Origin: Candidatus Aenigmatarchaeota archaeon
Lineage (GTDB): Archaea > Aenigmatarchaeota > Aenigmatarchaeia > Aenigmatarchaeales > Aenigmatarchaeaceae
DNA: 64,000 nt
Reading direction: 5' to 3'
Assembly (NCBI GenBank): GCA_043814985.1
Contig: JBDRJK010000019.1
Span: 56,561-120,560, forward strand
The notes under the pieces are model-generated. The model did no database searches and was not told the DNA's origin. It saw only the letters and a list, made by a program, of their open reading frames with translations. Each line of letters begins with the position of its first letter. The first letter of the stretch is position 1. A program made the translations under genes and the position numbers. Below are positions 10,276 through 63,981 of this stretch, piece after piece.

Positions 10276-10447
10276 AAAGAGAATTATGCCTTATCACTAT
10301 TAATTACCACTGCCAGTGGTAAAGGCTGTATTTATCATTTTTGGCTAAAGCTTTGAATAGTAATTTCATGAATTGTCGAATGTGCAAAAAAGATTTATAA
10401 GCATTAATTGACTACTAAGAATAAGTTGATTATCGAGGAGCTAAAAA

Positions 10448-11524
10448 ATGCCTGAAATTGACATCAAAAAATTCTTGCTGGAGAAAAAGCCCACTATTGA
10501 TAAAGTGGTTGAGAAGTGGATTCCCAAAAAATTTGACATGAATTTCATGGATTTTGTTTTTGGTAAAACAAGATACCAGTATAATGTTGATGTTGTTAAC
10601 AAGACTATTACCGAGCCCATTTGGGAGTTTTTGGAAAGGGGAGGAAAGAGATGGAGACCATCTTTGTTCCTTCTAGTTGTGGAGGCTTTGGGTGGTGACA
10701 AGGAAAAGGTCTTTGACTTTGTTGTGATACCAGAAATAATTCATAATGGGACTCTTTTTGTTGATGATATTGAGGACAGGAGCGAGTTGAGAAGAGGCAA
10801 GCCATGCATGCATTTGATGTACGGTATGGATGTGGCAATCAACACTGGCAACACTATGTATTATTTGCCTCTTTTGCCTCTGATCAAGCACAGAAAGGAT
10901 TTTGATTCAAACATACTTCTTAATGTTTACGAGACTTATGTCCAGGAAATGATAAACCTGGGTCTTGGGCAGGCCATGGACATAGCTTGGCATAATGGCA
11001 TATGCAATGCGGACAATCTCTCTGAGAAGGAATACTTACAGATGTGCGCTTTCAAGACAGGGACTTTGGCTAGGATGTCCGCCAAGATTGCTGCAATACT
11101 TTCAGGAGCTGATGACAAGCTTGTGGAAAATTTAGGCAATTATGCTGAGACAATCGGTATAGCGTTCCAAATACAGGACGATGTACTGAACTTGGTTGAG
11201 GGAGAGTTCACGGAGAATAAGGGGCTTGGTGAAGATATAACAGAGGGGAAGAGGAGCCTTTTGGTGATAAACACTTTAAACAAGGCAAGTCAAGAGGACA
11301 GGAAAAGACTTCTAGAGATTCTTGGCATGCATACTAATGTTCAGAAACTAAGGAATGAGGCAATATCCATAATCAAGAAATACGGTTCAATTGAGTATGC
11401 AAAGGAGAAGGCAAAAAAAATGATTATGGAGGCTTGGGAAGGCGTTGACAAACTTATTCCAGACTCGGATGCTAAGTTAAAGTTAAAGGCCTTTACTGAT
11501 TACTTGGTTGATAGAAAAATATAA
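10448..11524 (+). CDS. Polyprenyl diphosphate synthase (GGPP synthase-like) with N-terminal extension
   Basis: First DDxxD motif (FVDDIEDRSELRRGKP) and second (QIQDDVLN); SD-like GAGGAG upstream. Confidence 0.8.
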   Translation: MPEIDIKKFLLEKKPTIDKVVEKWIPKKFDMNFMDFVFGKTRYQYNVDVVNKTITEPIWEFLERGGKRWRPSLFLLVVEALGGDKEKVFDFVVIPEIIHNGTLFVDDIEDRSELRRGKPCMHLMYGMDVAINTGNTMYYLPLLPLIKHRKDFDSNILLNVYETYVQEMINLGLGQAMDIAWHNGICNADNLSEKEYLQMCAFKTGTLARMSAKIAAILSGADDKLVENLGNYAETIGIAFQIQDDVLNLVEGEFTENKGLGEDITEGKRSLLVINTLNKASQEDRKRLLEILGMHTNVQKLRNEAISIIKKYGSIEYAKEKAKKMIMEAWEGVDKLIPDSDAKLKLKAFTDYLVDRKI

Positions 11525-11535
11525 GGAGGAATAAT

Positions 11536-11688
11536 ATGGAGAATGACAATCTAAAAATGGTTTTAATAGATGCATCTGATGGACAGTGGGTAACTGTACC
11601 TAAACCAATTTACGAGACAGTAATAGAGGATAAGGGTTTCCTTGAAGGAAGACTTTATCTGTTAAGAAAAGAACATCCTAGTTTATAA
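11536..11688 (+). CDS. Small hypothetical protein (50 aa) with strong SD (AGGAGGA)
   Basis: Hand-translated MENDNLKMVLIDASDGQWVTVPKPIYE...; not in the ORF track (<60 aa). Confidence 0.3.
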   Translation: MENDNLKMVLIDASDGQWVTVPKPIYETVIEDKGFLEGRLYLLRKEHPSL

Positions 11689-11748
11689 TTAGCACCACCA
11701 AGGGTAGTAAATAAAATACATATTCCCTTAAATTGAATACTACATGTT

Positions 11749-12057
11749 ATGTTCCAAAAAATATCAGGAAACGTTTTAACTCCTGAAAAAATCAAAATTT
11801 TATTGAAGCTTAATAATATCATGATAAAGTTTTCCCCCTTCGAGGACCATACAGAGTTCGGCAGAAAGATTGAGGGTGAATTGAAAAAGAGATTCGGTAC
11901 ACATGGTTTGGAGTATGATTCAGAAAGTAACAAGTTTAGAGTCGAGGAAGGGAAAATCAGATGCATAACTCACGACTGTGGGAGCACCTGTTGCAGCGGT
12001 CTAGGAGATATTTTTTATGTTAGTGGAGAAGAACTTCAAGAGATTGCGAAAAACTAA
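11749..12057 (+). CDS. Hypothetical Cys-containing protein overlapping the mvk start
   Basis: ORF track only. Confidence 0.25.
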   Translation: MFQKISGNVLTPEKIKILLKLNNIMIKFSPFEDHTEFGRKIEGELKKRFGTHGLEYDSESNKFRVEEGKIRCITHDCGSTCCSGLGDIFYVSGEELQEIAKN

Positions 12058-13066
12058 GGCTTCTGCTCCAGGCAAGGTTATATTGTTCGGCGAACATGCT
12101 GTTGTCTATGATAAGCTAGGAATTGCCGCTTCTGTTGATTTGAATTGTCTTATTGAGGTTAGTACTAATAACGAGAATAAGGTTACCTATGAGATAAAGA
12201 AAATAGGAATGAAGAAGTCCATGACAAAGGAAGAGCTTTTCAATCTTTATGAAACTGTTGAAAGGCTCAAAAGAGAGGAAAGATTTGACGAAATAAAAGA
12301 ACTTCAAAAAAATGAAAAGCTAAACGCAGCCCTTTTCCTAATTTCTTCACTAATGAAGAAATACGGGTTTGTACCTATTGATGTGGTTGGTGATTCAGGC
12401 GTTACCAAGAACCTAGGTTCCAGTTCCTCAGCCTTTTCCGCGACTGCTATGGCAGTTTCAAAGTTTCTGGGAAAAGATATCTCTAAAGAGGATATTTGTG
12501 ATATGGCTTACCAGGGAGATGTGGTTGCTCATGGTGGCACGCCGTCGGGCATTGACAACTCCATTGTTACTTACGGTGGTTATATCCAATACAGGAAATC
12601 AAAGGGAATAAAACCTCTTGACATTAAGTTCAAGCTTCCTATAATTTTTGTGGACAGCGGTCAACCGTCCAGAACAGGTGAGACTGTTCCTTACATCAGG
12701 GACCAGAGAAATAAGAACAAGGAATTCGTTGACCAAGTTTTGGATAAGCTAGACAAAATCTCTATCCAAGCCTTGGACGCTCTGAAAGAAAATAAATTGG
12801 AATTGATAGGCAAGTTAATGCTGGAATATTATTCGGAATTGAAAAAGCTCAACATATCAACAGAAAAACTGGATGAGATAGTTGAGATCGCTATCAAGAA
12901 CGGAGCATTAGGAGCAAAACCAACAGGAGGATGGGGTGGAGGTTGCTGTCTGGTTCTTGCAAAGGATCAGGAACATGCAGATGAATTGGTAAAGATTTAC
13001 GAAGAGAACGGTTTTAATTCTTTCCAGACCAAAATAGGCGTAGAGGGTGTCAGGGAGATAAAATGA
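12017..13066 (+). CDS. mvk: Mevalonate kinase
   Basis: SAPGKVILFGEHAVVYD and GHMP-kinase motif LGSSSSAFSA; 349 aa. Confidence 0.85.
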   Translation: MLVEKNFKRLRKTKASAPGKVILFGEHAVVYDKLGIAASVDLNCLIEVSTNNENKVTYEIKKIGMKKSMTKEELFNLYETVERLKREERFDEIKELQKNEKLNAALFLISSLMKKYGFVPIDVVGDSGVTKNLGSSSSAFSATAMAVSKFLGKDISKEDICDMAYQGDVVAHGGTPSGIDNSIVTYGGYIQYRKSKGIKPLDIKFKLPIIFVDSGQPSRTGETVPYIRDQRNKNKEFVDQVLDKLDKISIQALDALKENKLELIGKLMLEYYSELKKLNISTEKLDEIVEIAIKNGALGAKPTGGWGGGCCLVLAKDQEHADELVKIYEENGFNSFQTKIGVEGVREIK

Positions 13067-13593
13067 GAATAGCAGTTGCAATTACAGGTGCTTCTGGCAG
13101 TGTTGTTGGTTTGAGATTAATAGAAGAACTAAAGAAGAAAGTTGAAGTTACAACAATAATATCAGATGCAGGTGAGAAAGTACTGAAAGAAGAGACAGGA
13201 ACTAAAATGAAAGCCGACTATGAGGAAGATGATATAGAGTCTCCCTTGGCGAGTAGCTCGAACATCGTAGATGCTTTCATAATATGTCCTTGCTCTGTGA
13301 AGACCCTGTCTGCAGTTGCCAATGGTTATACTAACAACCTTATTATCCGTTTGGCTGATATACAACTGAAGATGAGAAGGAAGTTGATATTGTGCATTAG
13401 GGAGACTCCCTTCAATCTCATGCACATAGAGAATATGAGAAAGGTTACCTTGGCCGGTGGAATCATAATGCCTTTGAACATCGCATATTATTCCAAGCCT
13501 AAAACCTTGGATGACGTTAATGATTTTTTTGTGGGCAAAGCTTTAGATTTAATTGGAATTGAAAACAAATTGTATAAGAGGTGGAAAGAATGA
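13063..13593 (+). CDS. ubiX: UbiX-family flavin prenyltransferase (prFMN synthase)
   Basis: MRIAVAITGASGSVVGLRLIE flavoprotein N-terminus; 176 aa; overlaps mvk stop. Confidence 0.8.
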   Translation: MRIAVAITGASGSVVGLRLIEELKKKVEVTTIISDAGEKVLKEETGTKMKADYEEDDIESPLASSSNIVDAFIICPCSVKTLSAVANGYTNNLIIRLADIQLKMRRKLILCIRETPFNLMHIENMRKVTLAGGIIMPLNIAYYSKPKTLDDVNDFFVGKALDLIGIENKLYKRWKE

Positions 13594-14840
13594 GTTTTAG
13601 AGGATTCATAAAAAAACTTGAAAATAACAATATGATTAAAAAAATCGAAGATGAGATTGATTTGAACTTGGGTCTTACCGGTTTTTTGAAAAATAAAACC
13701 CAGAGTTATGTTTTTGAAAACATAAGAGACTTTCCTAATTTTAAGATAGCCGCAAACCTTGTGACAGACAGAAAACATTTGGGCTTATCCTTTGATTGTA
13801 GTGAACAGGAAGTTGTAAAGAAGGTAGCCGATGCTATTAGAAATCCCGGAAAGTTGAATGAGGTAGACGATGCGCCATTTTTTGAGGTTGAAGCAAAACT
13901 ATCAGACCTACCAATACCTAGATATTTGCCTACAGATGGGGGTCCTTACTTATCGTCTGCTATTGTCTTTTCAAAAGATAAAGAACTTGGAGACAATGTT
14001 TCTTTCCATCGAATGATGGTAAAGGACGGAAGGATAATAATAAGGCTTGTTAAAAGACATACTTGGGAATTCTATGAGAGGTCAAATAGAAATTTGGACA
14101 TAGCGATATGCATAGGTCTTGACCCTGCTATTTTAGAGGCCGCTGCTGTATGCACAGATATAAGTGTATTTGAATTGCCAATAGCAAGCGCAATAATCGG
14201 AAAACCAATTGATGTTGTTAAATGTAGAACATGTGATTTGAAGGTTCCTGCTGAATCTGAGATAGTTATCGAGGCAACGATTACAGAGGAATGGGATGAC
14301 GAGGGGCCCTTCTTGGATATTACACTTACTCCTGACATAGTCAGAAGCCAGCCAGTGGTAAAGGTCAAAAAGATATTCCATAGGAAAAATCCTATATTTC
14401 ATGCTTTGCTTCCAGGCGGCTATGAACATGGAACAGTATGGAAAACGCCAACAGAGTCAGTCATGTTTAATGAAGTGAACAAAGTGTGTGCATGCAAGGA
14501 TGTCTTTCTAAGCTTTGGGGGATGCTCCCGTTTGCATGGGATGGTTCAGATAAAAAAGAAAAATAAGGAAGACGGACTAAGTGCTATAGAAGCTGCGTTC
14601 AAGGCGCATCCGAGCATGAAGCATGTGTTCATAGTTGATGAGGATATTGATATCTATGACATTAATGCAGTTGAATGGGCCCTTGCAACAAGATTCCAGG
14701 CAAAAACAGACTTGGTTATAAAACATGACTTAAAGGGTTCTACTCTGGATCCATCTTCTAGCAAGACGGGGAAGACATCCAAACTAGGGTTTGACTGTAC
14801 AATAAAAGGTGACCCAAAGGAATTCAGAAAAGTATTTTGA
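13581..14840 (+). CDS. UbiD-family decarboxylase (candidate trans-anhydromevalonate 5-phosphate decarboxylase)
   Basis: 419 aa UbiD-like; operon context between UbiX and AcnX genes. Confidence 0.7.
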   Translation: MERMSFRGFIKKLENNNMIKKIEDEIDLNLGLTGFLKNKTQSYVFENIRDFPNFKIAANLVTDRKHLGLSFDCSEQEVVKKVADAIRNPGKLNEVDDAPFFEVEAKLSDLPIPRYLPTDGGPYLSSAIVFSKDKELGDNVSFHRMMVKDGRIIIRLVKRHTWEFYERSNRNLDIAICIGLDPAILEAAAVCTDISVFELPIASAIIGKPIDVVKCRTCDLKVPAESEIVIEATITEEWDDEGPFLDITLTPDIVRSQPVVKVKKIFHRKNPIFHALLPGGYEHGTVWKTPTESVMFNEVNKVCACKDVFLSFGGCSRLHGMVQIKKKNKEDGLSAIEAAFKAHPSMKHVFIVDEDIDIYDINAVEWALATRFQAKTDLVIKHDLKGSTLDPSSSKTGKTSKLGFDCTIKGDPKEFRKVF

Positions 14841-14870
14841 TGAACTCCATATACAAAAATCGTCAATAAA

Positions 14871-15194
14871 ATGATTGTAATGATTGCTGGTAGGGGAAAA
14901 TATAAAGTTTGGCTAGAAAAGAAAAAGGTTGGCAAGGAGACAGTTTTATTTTTGTTTGGTGGAGAAAAACCGCATGTAGGCTGTGTTATAATAGTTGAAC
15001 CAAAGAGGAAAACTAAATTGATAAAATTTGATAACCATAAAGACTATATTGTTGCAAGACCTATTGCTGAAAAGTTTTGTAAAAAAACAAAGAGAAGAGT
15101 TGTTTGTGTTGCAGGAATCCATGTGGACAATGCGACAAAAGAAGAGATTAAGATTTTAGTTGACAACTGCAAAAAAATTGAGGAAAGGATATAG
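14871..15194 (+). CDS. Uncharacterised 107-aa protein embedded in the mevalonate operon
   Basis: ORF track; abuts the AcnX large subunit start (15195); no recognisable family. Confidence 0.4.
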   Translation: MIVMIAGRGKYKVWLEKKKVGKETVLFLFGGEKPHVGCVIIVEPKRKTKLIKFDNHKDYIVARPIAEKFCKKTKRRVVCVAGIHVDNATKEEIKILVDNCKKIEERI

Positions 15195-16391
15195 ATGGAA
15201 CTGACAAAAGAAGAGAGGGAAATGTTTGTTGGTGAAAGGGGAGAAGGCATACAAAAGGCAATGGAAATAATTGTTGCTTTAGGAAAGATATACAGTGCTG
15301 AAAGGCTCATAAGGGTTACAAGCGTTCAGGTTGCTGGTGTTAGCTACAAGAACCTGGGCGATGCTGGCATTGAATTTCTAGAGGATTGGGCAAGAAAGGG
15401 AGCAAAGATTTCTGTCAGAACTACATTAAATCCTGCAGGCATGGACTTGGAGAACTGGAAGAGATTAGGTTTCAAGGAAGAGTTTGCAAAAAAGCAGCTC
15501 AAAGTAATAGAGGCTTTCAAGAAGATAGGCATATCTCCTGTCTGCACATGCACACCCTACCTGATAGGCAACCTGCCAAAGTTCGGGGAGCATATTGCAT
15601 GGAGCGAGTCGTCTGCTGTTTCCTTTGCCAATTCTGTAATAGGAGCTAGGACCAACAGGGAAGGAGGTCCCTCTGCACTGGCAGCTGCAATAACAGGAAG
15701 GACAGCCTGCTATGGTTTTCATTTGAAGGAGAACCGCAAGGCAGACTTTGTCTTTGATGTGAAGTGCAAGGTTGATGGCTTCTCAGACTTAGGAGCTTTG
15801 GGGAACATTATTGGAAAATCTGTGAAAAACAAGGTACCATACATAATAGGTGTGAAAGAAGAGAATCAGGACAACCTGAAAGTTTTGGGAGCCTCAATGG
15901 CTGCTAGCGGTGCTGTAGCATTATACCATATTGATAATGTTACTCCTGAAGCTAAGATAAGGGACATGAGAAAGGAAGAATTCCAGACCATAGTCATTGA
16001 ATCCTTGGAAGAGGGCTACAAGTCTTTGAACTCTAACGAGAATGAGATAGACTTTGTTAGTATAGGATGCCCTCATGCTTCAGTTGATGAGATTAAGAAG
16101 ATATCAGAACTTGTCATAGGAAAGAAACTCAAGGCAGAACTGTGGGTCACAACCTCAAAACATGTCAAAAAGCTGGCAGACAAATATGTTAGGACAATAG
16201 AGCAAAGCGGCGGCAAGGTCCTAAGTGATACGTGTATGATTGTTGCACCAGTTGAGGATTTTGGTTTCAAGAATCTTGCCACAAACTCTGGCAAGGCTGC
16301 GTTCTATGCGCCTTCTTATTCTAAACTCAATGTCAGGTTCGGCTCGCTTGAACAATGTATTAATGCAGCATTAACAGGTAGATGGGAATGA
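15195..16391 (+). CDS. Aconitase X (AcnX) large subunit, phosphomevalonate dehydratase
   Basis: 398 aa; AcnX-type catalytic domain; coupled to the small subunit downstream. Confidence 0.75.
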   Translation: MELTKEEREMFVGERGEGIQKAMEIIVALGKIYSAERLIRVTSVQVAGVSYKNLGDAGIEFLEDWARKGAKISVRTTLNPAGMDLENWKRLGFKEEFAKKQLKVIEAFKKIGISPVCTCTPYLIGNLPKFGEHIAWSESSAVSFANSVIGARTNREGGPSALAAAITGRTACYGFHLKENRKADFVFDVKCKVDGFSDLGALGNIIGKSVKNKVPYIIGVKEENQDNLKVLGASMAASGAVALYHIDNVTPEAKIRDMRKEEFQTIVIESLEEGYKSLNSNENEIDFVSIGCPHASVDEIKKISELVIGKKLKAELWVTTSKHVKKLADKYVRTIEQSGGKVLSDTCMIVAPVEDFGFKNLATNSGKAAFYAPSYSKLNVRFGSLEQCINAALTGRWE

Positions 16392-16765
16392 AGGGAAGAA
16401 TAATAAAATTTGGAGATGTGGAAGGAGAGGCTATTGTCTCAAAAGAACCAATAAGCTTTTTTGGCGGCGTTGACCCGGATACTGGAATAGTTATTGAGAA
16501 AGGCCATTCTCTGGAAGGCAAAAACATCAAAGGAAAAATACTGGTCTTTCCCACAGGAAAGGGTTCCACTGTCGGTTCCTATGTCTTGTACAGGTTAAAG
16601 AAGAGCAATGTCGCTCCCTTGGGTATAATAAACGAGGAGTGCGAGCCCATAGTTGCTGTCGGTGCAATAATATCTGACATACCATGTGTTGACAAGATTG
16701 ACATAGGTAAGATAAATGATGGTGATATGGTCGTTATTGAGGGAGAGAAGGTTACCATCAAATGA
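16382..16765 (+). CDS. AcnX small subunit (DUF126 swivel domain) of phosphomevalonate dehydratase
   Basis: GEAIVSKEPISFFGGVDPDTGIV...LVFPTGKGSTVGSYVLYRL typical of PMDh small subunit. Confidence 0.75.
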   Translation: MGMKGRIIKFGDVEGEAIVSKEPISFFGGVDPDTGIVIEKGHSLEGKNIKGKILVFPTGKGSTVGSYVLYRLKKSNVAPLGIINEECEPIVAVGAIISDIPCVDKIDIGKINDGDMVVIEGEKVTIK

Positions 16766-16811
16766 CGATGCCATTAAAAAGGTATTAAAAGATTTGGACA
16801 TAAAGTGTATT

Positions 16812-17612
16812 ATGACGGACAACCTAATTTTGATCAAGCTCGGCGGCAGTCTTATAACAGACAAGAACACGCCCTTTACACCAAGACACGATGTTATCAA
16901 CAGACTGGCAAAGGAGATACACGAGGCCAGGCAGGAAAAGAAATTAAAGATTATTGTAGGACATGGTGGCGGTTCTTTCCCTCACAAGCCGGCAAAGGAC
17001 TATAGGACTAATGAAGGCATAGTGAACGGAGACAGTTTCAAAGGAATCTCTCTTGTCCAGGACGCGGCTTCTAAGCTTAATCGAATAATTGTTGATGCTT
17101 TGATAGATGCTGGCGAGAACGCTATTTCTGTGCAACCTTCTGCTTCCCTTATATCAGAGAACGGCAGGATAAAGGAGTGGTATCTTAAGCCAGTAACTGA
17201 GATGCTAAAAAATGATTTGTTGCCAGTACCTTATGGTGATGTTTCAATGGACACAAAAAAGGGCTGCTGCATAATATCCACTGAGGAGATTCTTAATTAC
17301 ATAGCAAAACATTCTTCTTTCAAGAAAATAATCCTTGCTGGTATAACCAATGGTGTGTATGAGAAAGACCCTACAATATACAAGGATGCCAAACTGATTC
17401 CTGAGATAAACTCGAAGAACTTCGAGGAAATCAAAAAATACCTTGGTGGCAGTACTGGGATTGATGTCACTGGAGGCATGCTCCACAGGGTAACTAGGAT
17501 ATTTGAGCTGTCAAAGTTCGGTACTGAATCTATTGTGATGAGCGGGGAAATAGAGGGCAACCTGAAAAGGGCTTTGCTTGGAGAAAGAGTAGGAACGCTT
17601 ATGAGATTGTGA
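16812..17612 (+). CDS. Isopentenyl phosphate kinase (amino-acid-kinase family)
   Basis: LILIKLGGSLITDK and GHGGGSF motifs; ATG at 16812 preferred (track start 16716 overlaps AcnX-S). Confidence 0.8.
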   Translation: MTDNLILIKLGGSLITDKNTPFTPRHDVINRLAKEIHEARQEKKLKIIVGHGGGSFPHKPAKDYRTNEGIVNGDSFKGISLVQDAASKLNRIIVDALIDAGENAISVQPSASLISENGRIKEWYLKPVTEMLKNDLLPVPYGDVSMDTKKGCCIISTEEILNYIAKHSSFKKIILAGITNGVYEKDPTIYKDAKLIPEINSKNFEEIKKYLGGSTGIDVTGGMLHRVTRIFELSKFGTESIVMSGEIEGNLKRALLGERVGTLMRL

Positions 17613-18139
17613 TTATGGAAGAGATAATTTCTGTTGTAGATGAGAAGGATATTTTACTGAGAGGAGAAGACAGGAAAAAAGTCCATGCTTCCACCTTTTG
17701 GCACAGAGGAATACATGTTTTTCTTTTCAATAAAAAAGGTGAGCTGTTAGTTCAATTGCGATCTCCAGACAAGGACAAATATCCCAATACTTTCGATTGT
17801 TCTGTCTCAGGTCATGTTGATTATGGAAATGGATATCTTGAGACCGCTAATAGGGAAATGAATGAGGAAGTTGGGCTGGATGGTTTAGATTTGGAACTGC
17901 TTGTGCATTTCAGGATGGTTTATGGTGATAGGGATTATATGATAAGCAAGCTTTTCAGGTGCGAATATGGTGGTGAGATAAAACCGAATGAAGAAGTTTC
18001 AGAAATAAAATTCTTGAAGATGGATGAACTGAAAAAAGCAATAATTGAGAAGCCTGATATGTTTACTCCTTGGTTTGTGGAAATGTTAAAATGGCATTTT
18101 AAGATGGAAAATAAGTTGCATATTCTTAAGGTTTATTGA
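17609..18139 (+). CDS. Nudix-fold protein resembling type 1 IPP isomerase (IDI-1)
   Basis: HRGIHVFLFNKKGELLVQLRSPDKDKYPNTFDCSVSGH..REMNEEVGL and C-terminal TPWFVEML align with IDI-1 conserved blocks. Confidence 0.5.
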   Translation: MIMEEIISVVDEKDILLRGEDRKKVHASTFWHRGIHVFLFNKKGELLVQLRSPDKDKYPNTFDCSVSGHVDYGNGYLETANREMNEEVGLDGLDLELLVHFRMVYGDRDYMISKLFRCEYGGEIKPNEEVSEIKFLKMDELKKAIIEKPDMFTPWFVEMLKWHFKMENKLHILKVY

Positions 18140-18146
18140 GAATTTT

Positions 18147-19187
18147 CTAAAGCTTTCTTTGATCAACCCAGTCCTTGACTTTTCCATCCAAAATGTATTT
18201 TGTATTTTTCAATTCTTCTATGTTCTTAGAGCCAGTCAAAAGCATTGTTGTCTTCAGCTCCTTTTCCAGTTTGTCAATATATTCTTCCACACCCTGTTTT
18301 CCTTTGGTTTTCAGAATCCTCAAGAAGGGTAAAGCTATGCCGCACATCTCCGCTCCAAGTGCAATTGATTTGGCAATGTCAACACCTGACCTAATCCCGC
18401 CCGTAGCAATTAGAGGCAGCCCTACTTTGGCTTCTATAATCGAAACAGGAGTCGGGATTCCCCAATTCTTGAAATTCTGGAACTCCTTGCCAGATATCAA
18501 GCCGTCAATAACAATCCAGTTAGTTCCCCCAAAACCTCCCACATCTATTGCCTTGACACCAGCTTCCTTAAGTTTCAAAGCAACATCTCTTGATATGCCA
18601 AAACCTACCTCCTTGCCAATAACAGGGTATTTCAAATCCTTGCATAAGTCCTTCAGAAAACATAGGCATTCACTGAAATTGGAGTCTCCGTTTTTCTGGA
18701 ATATCTCTTGGGAGGGGTTTATGTGAACGCAAAGGGCATTTGCTCCAACATATTTCAAGGCTTCCTCGATTTTATCAATGCTGAATTTCTTCAATTGATA
18801 TATGCCTACATTGCCGAAAAGCAGAACATTAGGAGCAACATCTCTAACATAGTAAGTATCCTTCAATTTAGGGTCTTCTATCATGGCTCTCTGGGATCCC
18901 AAAGAAAATCCAATACCTTTCTTCTCTGCTATTTCTGCTAGGTCCTTGTTTATTTTAGTTGCCTCTTCTGTCCCACCTGTCATTGATGCTATTGTCAGGG
19001 GTAATCTGAGTTTTGTTCCAAGAAACTCCGTGGTAGTGTCTATTTTTGCCAAATCCAATTCAGGCAAAGAATTATGAACTAGGTTAACATCCTCAAAACA
19101 TGCCTTATTGCTTTCAACATTCTCCTCTATGCATATCTTAAGATGGTCCTTTTTTCTTCTCTCCGTTGTCATAGTAATAGAATACAA
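18147..19187 (-). CDS. fni: Type 2 (FMN-dependent) isopentenyl-diphosphate isomerase
   Basis: N-terminal TERRKKDHL, ASMTGGT, GGFGGTNW motifs; 346 aa. Confidence 0.85.
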   Translation of the reverse strand: MYSITMTTERRKKDHLKICIEENVESNKACFEDVNLVHNSLPELDLAKIDTTTEFLGTKLRLPLTIASMTGGTEEATKINKDLAEIAEKKGIGFSLGSQRAMIEDPKLKDTYYVRDVAPNVLLFGNVGIYQLKKFSIDKIEEALKYVGANALCVHINPSQEIFQKNGDSNFSECLCFLKDLCKDLKYPVIGKEVGFGISRDVALKLKEAGVKAIDVGGFGGTNWIVIDGLISGKEFQNFKNWGIPTPVSIIEAKVGLPLIATGGIRSGVDIAKSIALGAEMCGIALPFLRILKTKGKQGVEEYIDKLEKELKTTMLLTGSKNIEELKNTKYILDGKVKDWVDQRKL

Positions 19188-20145: not shown

Positions 20146-20508
20146 ATGACTGAAGTTTGTAAATTGTCGTGGTTAAGTATATATTCCGACGATGAGATAT
20201 TTTCTATTCGAGTGGTGGTAATTTTTATGACAGCTGATCCCATCTTAGGTCAAACAAAGTCATACAGGCATAAGGACATGCCAGATGCCGTGAGGAGGGC
20301 TGCTGAAAGTCTTCCTAAATTGGAAGGCAACCCACACCTGCCTGTATATGGTTCTCAGCATCTTGAAATACTAAGAAAGTCTTTGGAAAAGCAACTGAAT
20401 GTTTCCATACCGCATATCCTTGTGAAAATCATTCCTGAGGAAAAACCATCAATTGATTATGAAACTGATTTGGTTTTTCATGCAGGTTATTCTGGTACCG
20501 AAGGTTAG
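20146..20508 (+). CDS. Hypothetical protein upstream of aIF5B
   Basis: ORF track only. Confidence 0.3.
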   Translation: MTEVCKLSWLSIYSDDEIFSIRVVVIFMTADPILGQTKSYRHKDMPDAVRRAAESLPKLEGNPHLPVYGSQHLEILRKSLEKQLNVSIPHILVKIIPEEKPSIDYETDLVFHAGYSGTEG

Positions 20509-20560
20509 CAATTTTTTACACTAAAGATAAAATCTTTTAAGCTTCTAGATTTAACTATTT

Positions 20561-22288
20561 TTGATTGATATGATTAGGCAGCCCATTGTTGTGACTATTG
20601 GCCATGTGGACCATGGAAAAACCACTTTGCTAGACAAGATTAGAAAAACAGCTGTCCAGTCAAAGGAAGCTGGCGGCATAACGCAGGCAATAGGCGCAAC
20701 AGAGATACCTCTGGACATTGTCAAGAAAGTGTGCGGCGACCTTCTGAAGAAAATGAAAATAGAAATCAAAATTCCAGGCTTGTTATTCATAGACACTCCT
20801 GGACACGAGGCTTTCACAGCTATCAGGAAGAGGGGATCATCAATAGCTGACTTAGCGATTCTTGTTATTGACATAAATTCCGGCATACAGCCCCAGACAG
20901 ACGAGTCAATTCAGATATTGAAAGAGTTCAAGACGCCCTTCCTTATCGCAGCAACCAAGATTGACAGGTTGGAGGGTTGGATAAGAAAAGAGGGCTCTTG
21001 CTTTTTAGAGAGCTTCGAGAAGCAGCCGGACTGGGTAAAGCAGAGGTTTGATGAGAAGTTCTACAGGCTCATTGGTCAGCTATCAGAGAGGGGTTTCAAT
21101 TCAGAAAGATTTGACAGGGTTGAGGATTTCAAGAAGACCGTTTCAGTAGTGCCGTGCTCCGGATTGACTGGCGAAGGCATACCTGAACTTTTGATGATGC
21201 TTACTGGTCTTGCACAGAACTTCCTGAAAAATGAGTTGGAAGTATCCAAGGGCATTGGCAGGGGCTCCATACTTGAGGTTAAAAATGTGAGAGGTTTGGG
21301 CTCAACAATAGATGTGATTCTTTATGACGGAGAAATAAAGAAGGGGGACTGGTTGATAGTCGGTGGTAAAAAACCAATAGTGACAAAGATAAAGGCCCTG
21401 CTAAAACCTAGGCCGTTAAAAGAAATAAGAGTCGAGAAGCAGTTCGAAAATATCGATTATGTTTTTGCTGCTGCTGGAGTAAAGATTGCAGCGCCTGATT
21501 TGGAGGATGCCATTGCAGGAAGTCCCATAGCTACTGTCCATGAGGGAGGCCAGATAGAGGAGATGAAGAAGGAACTGCAAACAGGTATAGAAGAGATTGA
21601 GTTTGAAAAGGCAATTGATGGGATAATACTGAAGGCAGACAACCTCGGCAGTTTGGAAGCCTTGATTGGTATTTTCAAGGACAGGGTTCCCATACAGAAG
21701 GCAGGAACAGGGAATGTTCTGAGAAAGGACGTTATTGCGATAGATGCTGGCAAGGATTCCCTGAAGAAAATTATTATAGCTTTCAATGTGGGCATTGATG
21801 ATGTGGCTGCCCAATACGCAAAAGACAAGTCAATCAAGATTCTACAGAACAACATAATATACAAACTGACAGAAGGTTATGACGAGTTTGTGAAAGAAGC
21901 TAAAGAGAAAATCAGATTGCAGAAGCTTGACACAATAACCATGCCAGCCAAGATTAGGATAATACCAGGTCACACCTTCAGGGCTTCAAACCCTGCCATA
22001 GTTGGAGTAGAAGTTTTAGCAGGGACAATAAAGGCTGGCTACAGGCTCCAGAAGGGAGGGAAGGAGATTGGGGAAATAAAGACAATACAGTCTGACAACA
22101 AGACTTTGGAGAGGGCTGAAACTGGAGACAAAGCCGCAGTTTCCATTGTTGGACCGACTGTTGGAAGGCACATAATGGAAGGGGATGAAATAACAACTCT
22201 TTTGACTGAAAAGGACTTGAAGGTTTTGGAAGATTTAGAACTGAATGCGGAAATACAGCTTGCCAAGCAAATTCTAGGCATTGATTAG
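20561..22288 (+). CDS. infB: Translation initiation factor aIF5B (IF2 homologue)
   Basis: GHVDHGKTTLLDKIR, DTPGHEAF GTPase motifs; 575 aa. Confidence 0.9.
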   Translation: MIDMIRQPIVVTIGHVDHGKTTLLDKIRKTAVQSKEAGGITQAIGATEIPLDIVKKVCGDLLKKMKIEIKIPGLLFIDTPGHEAFTAIRKRGSSIADLAILVIDINSGIQPQTDESIQILKEFKTPFLIAATKIDRLEGWIRKEGSCFLESFEKQPDWVKQRFDEKFYRLIGQLSERGFNSERFDRVEDFKKTVSVVPCSGLTGEGIPELLMMLTGLAQNFLKNELEVSKGIGRGSILEVKNVRGLGSTIDVILYDGEIKKGDWLIVGGKKPIVTKIKALLKPRPLKEIRVEKQFENIDYVFAAAGVKIAAPDLEDAIAGSPIATVHEGGQIEEMKKELQTGIEEIEFEKAIDGIILKADNLGSLEALIGIFKDRVPIQKAGTGNVLRKDVIAIDAGKDSLKKIIIAFNVGIDDVAAQYAKDKSIKILQNNIIYKLTEGYDEFVKEAKEKIRLQKLDTITMPAKIRIIPGHTFRASNPAIVGVEVLAGTIKAGYRLQKGGKEIGEIKTIQSDNKTLERAETGDKAAVSIVGPTVGRHIMEGDEITTLLTEKDLKVLEDLELNAEIQLAKQILGID

Positions 22289-27146: not shown

Positions 27147-27262
27147 CCCCGTCTGGCTCAATGGTAGAGCGGTCGGCTGTAGCTTTTTACTGTTGTATTA
27201 AGCATTTAGCAACCGTTCAAACAGAAACCGACAGGTTGGGAGTTCGACTCTCCCGGCGGGGA
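27147..27262 (+). tRNA. tRNA-Tyr (GTA) with 44-nt canonical intron (27183-27226)
   Basis: Acceptor CCCCGTC/GGCGGGG, D-stem GCTC/GAGC, anticodon stem GTCGG/CCGAC, loop CTGTAG^A, T-arm GGGAG-TTCGACT-CTCCC. Confidence 0.6.
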
Positions 27263-27306
27263 CTCTTTTCCTTTTTAGAAAAGAATAAATCTATGTTATC
27301 CAAAAG

Positions 27307-27624
27307 ATGAATATGGTATTAAAGAGAATTAGAAACTTTTTAGAAATTCACACTGACTACTTCAAACTATCCCTCAGGAATAGGAAAAAGTCTGTCCTTT
27401 GTCCCATGTGCAGCAAAAACATATCTAAGATAAGTGCAATAGTACTTTGTAAAAAATGCGATGAAAAATTCTCTAAGTATTCTGATAACTTGAAAAGAAC
27501 AATCGTTGAGAGAATAAAGAAACGTCCGAACAAAACCAAATGCTCTTTCTGTAATGAAGGCGGTCTGAAATTGGATAACAGACTGATTTACTGTGCTGAT
27601 TGCGACGTCTCCTTCCATCTCTAG
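27307..27624 (+). CDS. Zinc-finger protein (two CxxC pairs)
   Basis: CPMCSK...CKKCDE and CSFCNE...CADCD. Confidence 0.4.
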   Translation: MNMVLKRIRNFLEIHTDYFKLSLRNRKKSVLCPMCSKNISKISAIVLCKKCDEKFSKYSDNLKRTIVERIKKRPNKTKCSFCNEGGLKLDNRLIYCADCDVSFHL

Positions 27625-27660
27625 AATAACCTTTAAATACTTTTCAATTGAAATAAGGTT

Positions 27661-27780
27661 TGGTTGCCGATCAAAGAGTGTAGGCAAGACCCGTTCCCAT
27701 TTCGAACACGGTAGTGAATCTACATTTCGATTTCGGTTGTACTGTCGAAAAGATGGGAACCCGAAGTAGTTGGCGACCAC
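27661..27780 (+). rRNA. 5S rRNA, stand-alone, embedded in a tRNA cluster
   Basis: Helix I pairs GGTTGCCGA with TTGGCGACC; loop C CCGTTCCCATTTCGAACACGGTAGT and TGTACTG...GGGAACC match archaeal 5S conserved blocks. Confidence 0.7.
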
Positions 27781-27846
27781 TACTTTTCTAAATATTCACA
27801 AACTAGAAAACTATTTAAATATCTTACGAAATAAAACAATAGATAT

Positions 27847-27918
27847 GCCTCGATAGTATAGTGGTTAGTATACGGGCCTGTCGAGTCCGTGACCTGGGTT
27901 CAAATCCCAGTCGGGGCG
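27847..27918 (+). tRNA. tRNA-Asp (GTC)
   Basis: Acceptor GCCTCGA/TCGGGGC, anticodon stem CGGGC/GTCCG, loop CTGTCGA, T-arm CTGGG-TTCAAAT-CCCAG. Confidence 0.65.
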
Positions 27919-27929
27919 CAATTATATTC

Positions 27930-28187
27930 ATGGTCGTCATACTGAAGCTGAACAAAGGAACAGCAGAGAAGCTTTTGGAATTCACTTACATCAAGCCAGA
28001 GCAGTCTAGGAATCTCTCAGGCAAGGGACTGACATTGGAAATTGATGATAAGGACTTTTTGATAGAAATACACGAAAGGGAAAAGATGATAGAGATAGCG
28101 GACTATAATGGAAGCTTCGGGATATGGTTCAAGCTTACAAAGGAGAAAGTCAAGAAATTGAAGGAAATAGCAAAAATGGGCCCATAA
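27930..28187 (+). CDS. Small hypothetical protein between tRNA-Asp and tRNA-Lys
   Basis: ORF track (internal ATG chosen; the track N-terminus overlaps tRNA-Asp); stop overlaps the tRNA-Lys 5' end. Confidence 0.25.
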   Translation: MVVILKLNKGTAEKLLEFTYIKPEQSRNLSGKGLTLEIDDKDFLIEIHEREKMIEIADYNGSFGIWFKLTKEKVKKLKEIAKMGP

Positions 28188-28299
28188 CTCAGTTGGTAGA
28201 GTGCCAGGCTTTTATCTGTTAGATAAAAGCATGTGTAACGCGAAAGCGTGATGACAGGAAGAAACCTGGAAGTCGTGGGTTCGACCCCCACTGGGCCCA
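28178..28299 (+). tRNA. tRNA-Lys (TTT) with 49-nt intron (28215-28263) containing a C-box-like GTGATGA
   Basis: Acceptor GGGCCCA/TGGGCCC, D-stem ACTC/GAGT, anticodon stem CCAGG/CCTGG, loop CTTTTA^A, T-arm GTGGG-TTCGACC-CCCAC. Confidence 0.6.
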
Positions 28300-28305
28300 C
28301 TTTAT

Positions 28306-28415
28306 GCCGAGATAGCTCAGCCTGGTGGAGCGCCGGTCTCATAAAATCATTATGAGATTTGATCCCAAGATGATATGGAATCCGGAGGTCGAGGGTTCAA
28401 ATCCCTCTCTCGGCA
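28306..28415 (+). tRNA. tRNA with CAT anticodon (Met, or Ile2) carrying a 36-nt intron (28344-28379)
   Basis: Acceptor GCCGAGA/TCTCGGC, D-stem GCTC/GAGC, anticodon stem CCGGT/TCCGG (U31-U39), loop CTCATA^A, T-arm GAGGG-TTCAAAT-CCCTC. Confidence 0.55.
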
Positions 28416-32288: not shown

Positions 32289-32362
32289 GCCTCGATAACT
32301 CAGTTCGGTAGAGTGCCTCACTTGTAATGAGGATGTCGGGGGTTCAAATCCCTCTCGAGGCT
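32289..32362 (+). tRNA. tRNA-Thr (TGT)
   Basis: Acceptor GCCTCGA/TCGAGGC, D-stem ACTC/GAGT, anticodon stem CCTCA/TGAGG, loop CTTGTAA, T-arm GGGGG-TTCAAAT-CCCTC. Confidence 0.75.
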
Positions 32363-32507
32363 TCAGTTTTTTTCAGATATGGAAAATCCAGAATTTAAAT
32401 TAAGGTCTTAAAACACTTTCAACGAGCATTCTCAAGACTTTTTAAAGCTTTCATTAGTTTATAAGATTCCGTATAATTTTATAAATGAGTTTTTCTCTAT
32501 TCTTAAT

Positions 32508-33539
32508 ATGCTTCCTACGGTGAGTTTGATTGTTCCAGCGAGGAACGAGGAGAAGGTTATAGGCAAATGCGTAAGAAGTTTGTTAAATTTGGACTATCCC
32601 AGAGACAAGCTAGAGTTAATAGTTGCAATAGACGGCTCCAAGGACAGAACCTTAGAGATATGCAAGAGCTTTGGTAGGAGAGTGAGGGTCATAAAATCCT
32701 GTCCAAAGACATGCAAGGGAGACGCCTTGAACAATGTGATACCCAAGGCAAAAGGCGAGATAATAGGTATCTATGATGCTGACTGTATTGTTGATAAAAA
32801 CTGCCTGAAACATGCTGTCAAGCACTTTTCTGATAAAAAAATAGCAGGAGTTTGCGGCAATCTCAAGTCCCACAACAAGGAGCAGGGCATGATTGCAAGG
32901 TCACTGGCCCTAGAAACCAGCTTCATATCTTTCATAGAGTACTTCCTTAACAGTCTCGGAGCCAACACACATTTCTTTGGAAAGAACATGTTCATAAGAA
33001 AGAATGTTTTGATGGATGTGGGCTGTTTTGACACTGAGACTTTTGTGGAAGACGTGGAGATGTCAATAAAGCTGAAAAAATACGGTTACAAGACGGTTTT
33101 CGAGCCCAATGCAATTGCATGGAACGAGGAGCCGCCTTCCTTCAGAGCATTCTTCAAGCAGCGTATAAGATGGGCCAGAGGAGCTGCAAAGCTGCTTAAG
33201 TACAAAAGAAGGCATGGAAAGGAATTCTTGTCAGATGCAATGCACGGCATATACTTCTACGTTCCACCTTTCGGTCTTATAACAGCAACTGTCCTTGCAA
33301 TTGTTATGCAGTTCGGCTTGCCCTTTTTCTTGATACTTCCCTTTATTGTCCTTTTTATGTTCAACATGGTTCTGCTGGTTTATTCGAGGATAAAGTTCAA
33401 GGAGCCTATGGGAGATTTGCTTTATCTGCCGGTGTGGTTTGTTTTGAGCAATGTTCACTTGGTCTTGTTGCTCAAAGGCCTTCTAGATGAGAAAATGGAA
33501 AAGAGTGTTTCTTGGAATTCTGTCAGGGCATTTTCTTAA
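32508..33539 (+). CDS. Membrane-anchored family 2 glycosyltransferase (processive-type, C-terminal TM helices)
   Basis: SLIVPARNEEKVI, YDADC, QRIRWARG (QxxRW) motif; C-terminal hydrophobic helices. Confidence 0.7.
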   Translation: MLPTVSLIVPARNEEKVIGKCVRSLLNLDYPRDKLELIVAIDGSKDRTLEICKSFGRRVRVIKSCPKTCKGDALNNVIPKAKGEIIGIYDADCIVDKNCLKHAVKHFSDKKIAGVCGNLKSHNKEQGMIARSLALETSFISFIEYFLNSLGANTHFFGKNMFIRKNVLMDVGCFDTETFVEDVEMSIKLKKYGYKTVFEPNAIAWNEEPPSFRAFFKQRIRWARGAAKLLKYKRRHGKEFLSDAMHGIYFYVPPFGLITATVLAIVMQFGLPFFLILPFIVLFMFNMVLLVYSRIKFKEPMGDLLYLPVWFVLSNVHLVLLLKGLLDEKMEKSVSWNSVRAFS

Positions 33540-33581
33540 ATGTAAATATATAAAAACACTTGCATATTATTCTCTTAAACA

Positions 33582-33690
33582 GGGGTCATAGTCCAACCAG
33601 GCCAAGACGGCTGGCTCCAGTCATGGAGCTTTGATTCCGAAGATGAAAGGAAGAAACCAGCTGATGGGGGTTCAAATCCCTCTGACCCCA
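33582..33690 (+). tRNA. tRNA-Trp (CCA) with 35-nt intron (33621-33655)
   Basis: Acceptor GGGGTCA/TGACCCC, anticodon stem GCTGG/CCAGC, loop CTCCAG^A, T-arm GGGGG-TTCAAAT-CCCTC. Confidence 0.55.
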
Positions 33691-33705
33691 CTTCATTGTG
33701 ATTGT

Positions 33706-34104
33706 ATGGATTGTGTCTTTTGCAAGATTGTGAAGGGGGAGATACCCTGCCACAGGGTTTATGAGGACGATGAGTTCTTTGCATTTTTTGATATAAATCC
33801 TCTGAACCCAGGACATACTCTCCTTATTCCCAAGAAGCATGTCCAGTGGGTTAATGATTATGAGCCATTTTGCAGTTACTGGCAAACAGCAAGGAAAGTA
33901 GCTAATGTGATACAGAAGGTTCTTGACCCTTTGGTTGTCTCCTATGTTGTATATGGTTTGGGTGTTCCCCACGCGCACATACATCTGATACCAAAGTTCG
34001 AGAACGACGAGCATCCATTGGGACCCAACCCTGAGAAGGTGCAGAAGATACCAGAAGAGGAAATGAAAAAAATCGCTGAGAAAATAAGAAAGTCTTTTAA
34101 ATAA
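33706..34104 (+). CDS. HIT-family (histidine triad) nucleotide hydrolase
   Basis: CVFCKIVKGEIP N-terminus and HAHIHLIPK histidine triad; ATG 33706 (the track start overlaps tRNA-Trp). Confidence 0.8.
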   Translation: MDCVFCKIVKGEIPCHRVYEDDEFFAFFDINPLNPGHTLLIPKKHVQWVNDYEPFCSYWQTARKVANVIQKVLDPLVVSYVVYGLGVPHAHIHLIPKFENDEHPLGPNPEKVQKIPEEEMKKIAEKIRKSFK

Positions 34105-34127
34105 TTACAATTAAAATCTATTCTAGA

Positions 34128-34199
34128 GCGCCGATAGTCTAATGGTTAGGACTTCAGCCTTCCAAGCTGATAATCCGGGTTCGAATCCCGGTCGGCGCA
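34128..34199 (+). tRNA. tRNA-Gly (TCC)
   Basis: Acceptor GCGCCGA/TCGGCGC, anticodon stem TCAGC/GCTGA, loop CTTCCAA, T-arm CCGGG-TTCGAAT-CCCGG. Confidence 0.75.
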
Positions 34200-47919: not shown

Positions 47920-48005
47920 GCGGAGGTCCGATAGTCTGGTCAATTCGGTAGGCTTGAGGAGCCTATGGGTTAGTCCCTTCGCAGGTTCAAATCCTGCCCT
48001 CCGCA
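47920..48005 (+). tRNA. tRNA-Leu (GAG), long variable arm
   Basis: Acceptor GCGGAGG/CCTCCGC, anticodon stem TAGGC/GCCTA, loop TTGAGGA, 15-nt variable arm, T-arm GCAGG-TTCAAAT-CCTGC. Confidence 0.7.

Positions 48006-56852: not shown

Positions 56853-63981
<7,129 letters not shown>

Follow-up and report, generated by a model that had tools for sequence, protein, structure and literature searches.

A compact archaeal mevalonate-pathway gene cluster from a DPANN archaeon, with a putative LpdD-like partner of its UbiD-family decarboxylase

We analysed a 64-kb stretch of DNA from Candidatus Aenigmatarchaeota archaeon, a member of the DPANN archaea (the window, to which all coordinates refer), and concentrated on a run of isoprenoid genes at 10448–19187. 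These genes encode a short-chain polyprenyl diphosphate synthase, a mevalonate kinase (MVK), the flavin prenyltransferase UbiX, a UbiD-family decarboxylase, an LpdD-like protein, an AcnX-type dehydratase's large and small subunits (AcnX-L and AcnX-S), an isopentenyl phosphate kinase (IPK), a Nudix protein and a type 2 isomerase (IDI-2) that interconverts isopentenyl diphosphate (IPP) and dimethylallyl diphosphate (DMAPP). The archaeal anhydromevalonate phosphate pathway has been known since 2018. The operon described here likely converts mevalonate by this route to IPP and DMAPP and on to polyprenyl diphosphate, with a cofactor-supply module of its own; what is new is an LpdD-like gene tied to a mevalonate-pathway UbiD, whose product is a plausible accessory factor. 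Gene families were assigned by Pfam and NCBIfam profile searches, with bit scores compared to the curated cut-off where a model has one. For comparison we used related contigs and genomic stretches, numbered L001 onwards (L001 is assembly GCA_964421545.1 and L092 is European Nucleotide Archive entry ERZ27271168).

The open reading frames (ORFs) listed between 8 and 22 kb include an unbroken forward-strand series from 10448 to 18139, followed by a single convergent ORF at 18147–19187 (Table 1). The initial annotation of this DNA had named nine families in the run, and profile searches confirmed each of them; it had overlooked three ORFs, namely the LpdD-like gene and the two small frames orf50 and orf102. 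The 4-nt overlaps it described are present as they stand between mvk and ubiX (ATGA at 13063–13066) and also between ubiX and ubiD and between acnX-L and acnX-S if translation begins at ATG 13590 and ATG 16388, the starts called in L001. The longest ubiD frame opens with GTG 13581, and ATG 13590 gives 416 residues; AcnX-S has 125 residues from ATG 16388 or 127 from the alternative ATG 16382. For ipk the longest frame runs from 16716, the NF040647 match begins at residue 38, and ATG 16815 yields the 265-residue protein called in L001, where IDI-2 likewise has the 341 residues that result from its probable start at ATG 19172. No nucleotide separates the lpdD-like stop codon from the start codon of acnX-L, 2 nt lie between ipk and the Nudix gene, and 7 nt lie between the stop codons of the Nudix gene and of IDI-2, correctly described before as convergent. 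For the polyprenyl synthase, which is 87–89% identical to its versions in L001 and L092, NCBIfam gives IdsA (238 bits) and GGPP_syn (201 bits) as top models, each short of its equivalog cut-off. In the divergent spacer between this gene and the minus-strand trm1 gene lies a possible archaeal promoter.

Table 1. Features of the isoprenoid gene cluster (bit scores are followed by the curated cut-off where one applies)
Feature	Position	Strand	Evidence or remark
Candidate archaeal promoter	10385–10401	+	Purine-rich run resembling a B recognition element, then TATA-like TTTATAAG, ~46 nt 5' of the first start codon; identified by eye
Short-chain (E)-polyprenyl diphosphate synthase, geranylgeranyl diphosphate (GGPP) synthase-like	10448–11524	+	PF00348, 226 bits
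orf50, small ORF, 50 aa	11536–11688	+	GGAGG upstream; homologue at the same site in L001
orf102, conserved ORF, 102 aa	11749–12057	+	3' end overlaps the mvk start by 41 nt
Mevalonate kinase (MVK)	12017–13066	+	TIGR00549, 202 bits (163); GHMP_kinases_N and GHMP_kinases_C
UbiX flavin prenyltransferase	13063–13593	+	TIGR00421, 198 bits (109); PRK06029, 199 bits (188)
UbiD-family decarboxylase, predicted anhydromevalonate phosphate decarboxylase	13590–14840	+	TIGR00148, 331 bits (245)
Replaced block, ubiD from about codon 15–22 onwards plus lpdD-like gene	13651–15194	+	Without DNA similarity to L092
LpdD-like protein, 107 aa	14871–15194	+	PF21758, 98 bits (27)
Phosphomevalonate dehydratase large subunit (AcnX-L), AcnX type IIb, 398 aa	15195–16391	+	PF04412, 524 bits
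Phosphomevalonate dehydratase small subunit (AcnX-S), AcnX swivel	16388–16765	+	PF01989, 124 bits; PRK03955, 184 bits (163)
Isopentenyl phosphate kinase (IPK)	16815–17612	+	NF040647, 210 bits (120)
Nudix hydrolase, IDI-1/YfcD-like branch	17615–18139	+	PF00293, 64 bits
Type 2 (FMN-dependent) IPP:DMAPP isomerase (IDI-2)	18147–19187	-	TIGR02151, 394 bits (281)

The reading of this cluster as the archaeal route through trans-anhydromevalonate 5-phosphate, already proposed in the initial annotation, is well supported by the cysteine pattern of AcnX and by the linkage of this UbiD clade to AcnX-L and AcnX-S in archaea. The closest solved relative of AcnX-L is the phosphomevalonate dehydratase of Thermococcus kodakarensis, solved with mevalonate 5-phosphate (7cnr/7cns). 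According to the paper on the Aeropyrum pernix enzyme, the archaeal type has three [4Fe-4S] ligands, Cys122, Cys297 and Cys356, and lacks the bacterial-type "site C" cysteine. The corresponding residues of the window protein, mapped by position and by aligning it to the T. kodakarensis chain, are Cys119 (TCTPY), Cys292 (GCPHAS) and Cys347 (DTCMIV) at sites A, 1 and B; site C is occupied by Ile349. The dehydratase is encoded as separate large and small subunits, as expected of AcnX type IIb. That the pair should instead represent another AcnX type, the fused form with a site C cysteine covered by model NF051439, is scarcely credible: the model scores 317 bits, far under its cut-off of 700, the enzyme is split in two rather than being a single fused polypeptide, and the cysteine pattern is archaeal. 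In addition, the T. kodakarensis enzyme is matched much more strongly than type I AcnX (406 against 245 bits), and the neighbours are mevalonate-pathway genes, not hydroxyproline genes.

For the UbiD-family protein, the case for a predicted role as anhydromevalonate phosphate decarboxylase is good though indirect, and is built on a conserved linkage to AcnX, on a clade motif and on a paper that used the Methanosarcina mazei enzymes and lists both dehydratase subunits and the decarboxylase under consecutive gene IDs. For the context test, one genome per species was scanned with a 19-homologue alignment, and the 80 loci returned, in which the best relative had 48% identity, were searched with the window proteins and used for the synteny statistics. 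Of the archaeal loci, 47 had 3 kb or more of downstream sequence, and in 34 of these AcnX-L, with AcnX-S behind it, lay on the same strand no further than 3 kb away; the gene directly upstream of UbiD was UbiX in 20 and MVK in 17 of the 49 archaeal loci with upstream room. The closest UbiD contexts with long flanks (L002 and L097, 55–57% identity) are MVK...UbiD–AcnX-L–AcnX-S–IPK–IDI-2 clusters, and EGPF[LV]D[IL][TS].T is a motif shared by every protein checked, in place of the EGPFGE of the furandicarboxylate decarboxylase HmfF. Directly before ubiD in L002 (8605–9720) and L097 (6886–8004) there is also a gene for a 371–372-residue protein with a weak GHMP C-terminal match, which may be a second, divergent GHMP kinase; a normal MVK gene lies further upstream. 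Of the window ORFs scanned, which comprised all of at least 340 residues and selected smaller ones, that of MVK alone belongs to the GHMP family.

Downstream of ubiD lies the gene for the LpdD-like protein, whose family, PF21758, bears the name LpdD_chaperone in precomputed annotations. Using phmmer, the protein matched the Lactiplantibacillus plantarum LpdD structures 8p4w, 8pzh and 8po5 at an E value of 5e-5. A 2024 paper in the Journal of Biological Chemistry reported that LpdD binds the reduced prenylated flavin mononucleotide (prFMNH2; prFMN for the cofactor in general) and assists UbiD activation; it mentions neither archaea nor mevalonate, and our literature search found no paper combining LpdD and mevalonate. 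His35, His56 and Asp58 of the window protein align with the LpdD metal site H35-H61-D63, and among 13 aligned sequences both histidines are present in all 13 and the aspartate in 12. A single-sequence AlphaFold model was poor (predicted local distance difference test score 57.8) and uninformative, with no Foldseek match in the PDB at E ≤ 0.001.

The genomic context was then considered from both sides. On the LpdD side, a metagenome scan with a 12-sequence alignment returned 80 loci, a sample biased to the query subfamily. A UbiD of the window type stood immediately upstream on the same strand in all 71 loci with at least 300 nt of upstream sequence; the next gene downstream was AcnX-L in 20 of these 71, a further 31 had it within 4 kb, and MVK was usually upstream. 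Given this strict gene linkage and the membership in PF21758, we infer that the LpdD-like protein may act as a prFMNH2 chaperone for the mevalonate-pathway decarboxylase. Two observations count against a tight dependence of one protein on the other. Of the 80 species-representative loci recovered with UbiD, 10 have an LpdD-like gene (directly after UbiD in 9 of them; mostly with Thermoplasmatota or Methanomassiliicoccales labels), and L095 and L096 encode an 81%-identical UbiD followed by radical SAM genes, without an LpdD-like gene. The coupling is thus not absolute, and such a chaperone is not generally required. In many lineages with the UbiD–LpdD pair, a gene of roughly 390–409 codons is inserted on the opposite strand between the lpdD-like gene and acnX-L, leaving a recurrent 1.2-kb gap (for example L125 5324–6553 and L084 11615–12829, both on the minus strand, as well as L146 and L099). 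Its product looks like a TruD-type pseudouridine synthase and, judged by eye from the sequence, was treated as unrelated to the system.

A known counterpart of this arrangement is the gallate decarboxylase system LpdB/LpdC/LpdD of L. plantarum, which likewise brings together UbiX, UbiD and a PF21758 protein with a His-His-Asp site. The window differs in several respects: the partner UbiD falls into the mevalonate-pathway clade instead of the aromatic-acid decarboxylases, the lpdD-like gene follows ubiD rather than ubiX, and the protein, at 107 residues, is shorter than the roughly 136 of LpdD, lacks 5 residues ahead of the second histidine and shows low overall sequence similarity (the phmmer match quoted above).

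Comparison with L092 bears on the origin of the ubiD–lpdD pair. The L092 stretch reads rpo4, DUF655, MGMT, trm1 (minus strand), GGPP synthase (GGPPS), a 52-aa ORF, orf102, MVK, UbiX, UbiD (435 aa), AcnX-L, AcnX-S, a HAD-family phosphatase, IPK, Nudix, IDI-2 (plus strand), several genes, 3-hydroxy-3-methylglutaryl-coenzyme A (HMG-CoA) reductase and aIF5B. It thus shares with the window the flanks (rpo4–DUF655–MGMT–trm1 ... aIF5B) and the order GGPPS–orf–orf102–MVK–UbiX–UbiD–AcnX-L–AcnX-S–IPK–Nudix–IDI-2. Protein identities between the two are high throughout (DUF655 97%, orf102 95%, MVK and aIF5B 94%, AcnX-L 93%, IPK 91%, UbiX 89%) except for UbiD, at 43%, and the LpdD-like gene is absent from L092. 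At the DNA level, blastn gave collinear blocks of 86–88% identity that stop at 13658 and continue from 15195, which is exactly the position of the start codon of acnX-L; in the junction alignments similarity fades about 12–22 codons into ubiD and is back at 98% from the acnX-L ATG.

The block between these breakpoints is common to the window and L001 (UbiD 92%, LpdD 89% identical); in other respects L001 is not a nearer relative of the window than L092. In L090 and L094, which are more distantly related, UbiD is of the L092 type, and a rough neighbour-joining tree placed that type with Bathyarchaeia and the window type with the archaeal L002 and L005. Because UbiD is so much more divergent than its neighbours (43% against 89–94%), the DNA breakpoints are sharp and the block recurs in L001, the pattern is most simply explained by a foreign ubiD–lpdD pair that took the place of the native ubiD in situ. 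The ubiD body and the lpdD-like gene would have recombined into the locus as one block via the conserved flanks, from the 5' end of ubiD to the acnX-L start. Base composition gives no support for a foreign origin, since the block, with a GC fraction of 0.378, resembles its flanks (0.386 and 0.413). If both genes did arrive together, this would support a functional coupling of UbiD and the LpdD-like protein.

These data also bear on whether the UbiX–UbiD–LpdD trio might be an aromatic-acid (de)carboxylase system, of the gallate LpdBCD kind or a quinone-pathway UbiD, with a GHMP-type decarboxylase of the mevalonate pathway encoded elsewhere. Several points speak against the decarboxylase assignment and in favour of this alternative: every LpdD partner characterised so far is an aromatic-acid decarboxylase, among solved structures HmfF comes closest to the window UbiD (242 bits), and the specificity of UbiD rests on synteny and the clade motif, with NCBIfam membership at the level of the general UbiD family. 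A search of solved structures with the window UbiD found none of an anhydromevalonate phosphate decarboxylase. Against this, the block displaced the native ubiD exactly between ubiX and acnX-L, and the cluster has no other UbiD. The protein carries EGPF[LV]D[IL]T.T, the motif of AcnX-linked archaeal UbiDs, and not the EGPFGE of HmfF, and its relatives at 55–57% identity sit inside MVK–UbiD–AcnX–IPK–IDI-2 clusters. Moreover, the anhydromevalonate phosphate from the dehydratase would lack a consumer, and no GHMP decarboxylase was found among the window ORFs scanned. We therefore consider an aromatic-acid system very unlikely and retain the predicted role of UbiD in the mevalonate pathway.

The Nudix protein encoded behind ipk had been described as IDI-1-like. 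In Escherichia coli type 1 isopentenyl diphosphate isomerase (IDI), Cys67 and Glu116 are the catalytic acid and base. In the window protein the IDI motif SVCGH reads SVSGH, which puts serine at the Cys67 position, and the segment with Glu114 and Glu116 is missing. When 19 members of its clade were aligned with a true Iainarchaeum IDI-1, serine occupied the Cys67 position in 17 and the glutamate segment was deleted in every member; the third metal-binding histidine, His69, is glutamine in many. The hydrolase motif GX5EX7REUXEEXGU, without counterpart in true IDI-1, is perfect in most clade members. Among solved structures, the E. coli Nudix hydrolase YfcD matches best (54 bits, compared with 40 bits for Salmonella IDI), and the IDI-1 model TIGR02150 scores 71 bits against a cut-off of 105.8.

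Could the protein nevertheless be a divergent but functional type 1 isomerase, as a backup for IDI-2? Its similarity is highest to the IDI-1/YfcD branch (PRK03759 scores 70 bits, next to the 71 of TIGR02150), its His26, His32 and His68 correspond in the alignment to the metal-binding His25, His32 and His69 of IDI, the Iainarchaeum locus L037 has a true IDI-1 at the same post-IPK position, and several homologues have been named IDI type 1 by the Joint Genome Institute. We regard this as improbable in view of the missing catalytic residues, the metal ligand substitution, the score under cut-off and the retained hydrolase motif, and also because IDI-2 is already present in the window locus and in three of the four relatives with an IPK–Nudix pair (L090, L092 and L094). 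With the IDI-1 catalytic cysteine and glutamates missing and the Nudix motif kept, the isomerase role was rejected, and the protein is probably a diphosphatase acting on IPP and DMAPP.

An isoprenoid substrate is argued for by the position of the gene, which directly follows ipk at a distance of 2–8 nt in the window and in four relatives (L090, L092, L093 and L094). UbiX needs dimethylallyl monophosphate, together with reduced flavin mononucleotide, to make prFMNH2. Ishibashi and colleagues reportedly described an IPP/DMAPP-specific Nudix hydrolase from M. mazei in Biosci Biotechnol Biochem in 2022 and proposed it as the source of dimethylallyl phosphate for prFMN; our literature search yielded no usable paper on a link between a Methanosarcina Nudix hydrolase and prFMN. 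Like the M. mazei enzyme, the window protein is archaeal and belongs to the IDI-1-like branch. It matches the NCBIfam model for the Methanosarcina Nudix hydrolase, NF041653, over its full length (E 6e-17), but with 62 bits it is under the equivalog cut-off of 300, and the IDI-1 and YfcD models score equally. Given the cofactor requirement of UbiX, the co-location of the Nudix gene with ubiX, ubiD and the lpdD-like gene, and the M. mazei hydrolase, the protein might hydrolyse DMAPP to feed UbiX, which is the weakest step of the scheme.

A different possibility is that the Nudix protein and IPK form a homeostatic pair that sets the ratio of isopentenyl phosphate to IPP, or that the Nudix protein is a general house-cleaning enzyme, in either case with no tie to prFMN. 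The conserved IPK–Nudix adjacency agrees with such a role, as do the HAD-family phosphatases beside the pair in relatives, which suggest dephosphorylation chemistry, and L094 keeps the Nudix gene though UbiX is not in its cluster. Furthermore, a 64%-identical homologue in L089 lies outside any mevalonate cluster, beside another Nudix gene. The last observation detracts from the proposed supply of UbiX, and so do the absence of the Nudix gene from L001, the closest relative for the replaced block, and the Nudix box of the window protein itself, G-x5-N-x7-REMNEEVGL, in which the core is intact and the first glutamate is asparagine. Taken as a whole, the homeostatic or house-cleaning explanation appears rather unlikely to us; its isopentenyl phosphate/IPP balancing role is about as likely as DMAPP supply to UbiX.

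The HAD-family phosphatase genes mentioned above stand between acnX-S and ipk in L090 (6904–8144, with a CYTH protein), L092 (8452–9174) and L094 (8492–9196), and are lacking in the window. Together with the Nudix gene, the HAD and CYTH genes suggest dephosphorylation of isoprenoid phosphates inside the clusters of these relatives.

The initial annotation had implied that tight clustering is special, a view that the comparison does not bear out. A review-type paper states that archaeal mevalonate pathway genes "usually form gene clusters", and in our scans UbiD–AcnX-L–AcnX-S blocks recur across archaea, often with MVK, UbiX, IPK or IDI-2. Nine families were scored for presence within 10 kb (polyprenyl synthase, MVK, UbiX, UbiD, LpdD, AcnX-L, AcnX-S, IPK and IDI-2): all nine are found in the window and in L001, and the maximum among the 80 species-representative loci was eight, in one locus, followed by seven in four. 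Relatives hold equal or larger clusters that include HMG-CoA reductase. L094 in particular has a single run of GGPPS, MVK, UbiD, AcnX-L, AcnX-S, HAD, IPK, Nudix, IDI-2, a thiolase-like gene, a 483-aa gene and HMG-CoA reductase, which is closer to a complete pathway than the window; the 483-aa protein had no Pfam match and was not called HMG-CoA synthase. The window cluster lies towards the well-packed end of a known continuum.

Compared with the pathway as known from A. pernix and M. mazei (MVK, phosphomevalonate dehydratase PMDh-L/S, the decarboxylase AMPD, UbiX or "PFS", IPK and IDI), the window has the same enzyme families in the same logical order. Its dehydratase has the three cysteine ligands that hold the [4Fe-4S] cluster in A. 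pernix, and its decarboxylase and dehydratase genes adjoin, as the consecutive IDs suggest for M. mazei. Unlike those systems, the window packs its forward ORFs and the convergent IDI-2 into 8.7 kb, adds a polyprenyl synthase, the LpdD-like gene, the Nudix hydrolase and two small ORFs, lacks the upper pathway and belongs to a DPANN archaeon. Bathyarchaeia (L034, L040 and L085) have a similar order, MVK–UbiD–AcnX-L–AcnX-S–IPK–IDI-2–GGPPS. Among the close relatives, L092, L090 and L094 differ from the window in their UbiD (43% identical) and in having no LpdD-like gene. They also carry the HAD phosphatase (plus CYTH in L090) and have IDI-2 on the operon strand, inverted in the window. HMG-CoA reductase precedes aIF5B in all three, and L094 has the thiolase-like gene as well; the window has lost these or never had them.

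The cluster had initially been called a complete pathway. Thiolase, HMG-CoA synthase and HMG-CoA reductase are, however, absent from the cluster and from the 64-kb window: none was found among the window ORFs of at least 340 residues, all of which were assigned or scanned, and tblastn with the relatives' reductase and thiolase-like proteins gave no match in the window. HMG-CoA reductase is precisely missing between orf120 and aIF5B (window 20508–20561), where L092, L090 and L094 carry it, and L092 14755–15909 (reductase gene 14770–15915) corresponds to an 8-nt gap at window 20516–20524. The cluster therefore spans mevalonate to polyprenyl diphosphate, not acetyl-CoA to mevalonate. With the reductase missing from its syntenic site, the locus does not explain the source of mevalonate, which is a further point against the proposed scheme. 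Either the upper-pathway genes lie elsewhere in the genome or the organism depends on imported mevalonate; a loss of HMG-CoA reductase from this DPANN archaeon, with its lower pathway fed by mevalonate taken up from a host, seems unlikely to us.

The two small ORFs upstream of mvk had no Pfam or NCBIfam match and, among loci L001–L087, no homologues outside close relatives. orf102 encodes a C-x-x-H-D-C-G-x-T-C-C motif (CITHDCGSTCCSGLG) and has the same length, without indels, in L001 (73% identity) and L092. Its nucleotide changes at the first, second and third codon positions number 21/12/44 against L001 and 1/3/12 against L092, a third-position bias. In L090 the corresponding site encodes a 213-aa protein, part of which is related to orf102. 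For orf50, a homologue at the same place was found in L001 only (jackhmmer 104 bits, 40% identity by tblastn); the 52-aa ORF of L092 at this position is unrelated.

In all genes compared, changes relative to the relatives are biased to third codon positions, which indicates that the genes are maintained under purifying selection. Against L001, synonymous and non-synonymous codon changes number 73 and 33 in UbiD, 20 and 12 in the LpdD-like gene, and 122 and 30 in AcnX-L; for IPK against L092 they number 77 and 21. The neighbours in the window are archaeal housekeeping genes (RtcB, Trm1, aIF2-gamma, aIF5B, SRP54, FtsY, Pus10 and RNA polymerase subunits), and the best named relatives of SRP54 are from Aenigmatarchaeota, at 75–76% identity. 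The Nudix protein is 100% identical to a 174-aa NCBI protein from a Candidatus Aenigmatarchaeota metagenome-assembled genome.

Genes for B12-binding radical SAM proteins occur near isoprenoid genes in this lineage, at window 34207–35634 (plus strand) and at L093 8413–9999, between two Nudix genes after IPK; those following the 81%-identical UbiD in L095 and L096 are two genes directly adjacent to it (L095 3516–6003). A role in lipid modification is possible. Elsewhere in the window, a single 1911-aa ORF at 58246–63981 (minus strand) joins Rpb2 domains 1–7 (residues 14–1083) in frame with Rpb1 domains 1–5 (about 1100–1889), and is followed by a separate RNA polymerase A'' gene at 57093–58241 (minus strand). 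Archaeal rpoB and rpoA' are normally separate genes, and the ORF is either a real fusion or the result of a stop codon lost in sequencing or assembly. There are also a 5S rRNA gene at 27663–27778 and eight tRNA genes (27147–28415, 32289–34199 and 47920–48005), four of which are 109–122 nt long, a length that suggests introns.

Based on these comparisons, we propose the following scheme, in which the enzyme activities are assigned by homology, a point that itself tempers it. Mevalonate kinase would convert mevalonate to mevalonate 5-phosphate, the two-subunit [4Fe-4S] AcnX dehydratase would form trans-anhydromevalonate 5-phosphate, and the prFMN-loaded UbiD-family enzyme would decarboxylate this to isopentenyl phosphate. 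Isopentenyl phosphate kinase would then yield IPP, the convergently encoded IDI-2 would interconvert IPP and DMAPP, and the polyprenyl synthase would build the lipid precursor. On the cofactor side, UbiX would make prFMNH2, and the LpdD-like protein, to go by its family and gene linkage, would bind it and help to load or mature the cofactor in the decarboxylase. The Nudix protein may hydrolyse DMAPP (and IPP) to the monophosphate for UbiX, such that a pathway product would feed the cofactor of the pathway's own enzyme.

More tentatively, and at somewhat less than even confidence, we suggest that some archaea dedicate the LpdD-like protein to the decarboxylase, for which it would take prFMNH2 from UbiX and enable loading or oxygen-independent maturation. 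UbiD and the LpdD-like protein would then be a co-adapted pair, exchanged as a two-gene cassette, and with the Nudix gene the cluster would be a self-contained "pathway plus cofactor" unit.

The cluster is one well-packed natural example of the archaeal route, and a possible ready-made operon template beside the artificial operons used for isoprenoid production; in engineered hosts the decarboxylase needs prFMN from a co-expressed flavin prenyltransferase, and the dehydratase is oxygen-sensitive. Loading and oxidative maturation of prFMN in anaerobes is an open problem of the UbiD field, for which the LpdD-like gene provides a testable lead. The locus also raises the question of where a DPANN organism obtains its mevalonate, and it suggests that a central enzyme of lipid-precursor synthesis can be swapped in situ between archaeal lineages.

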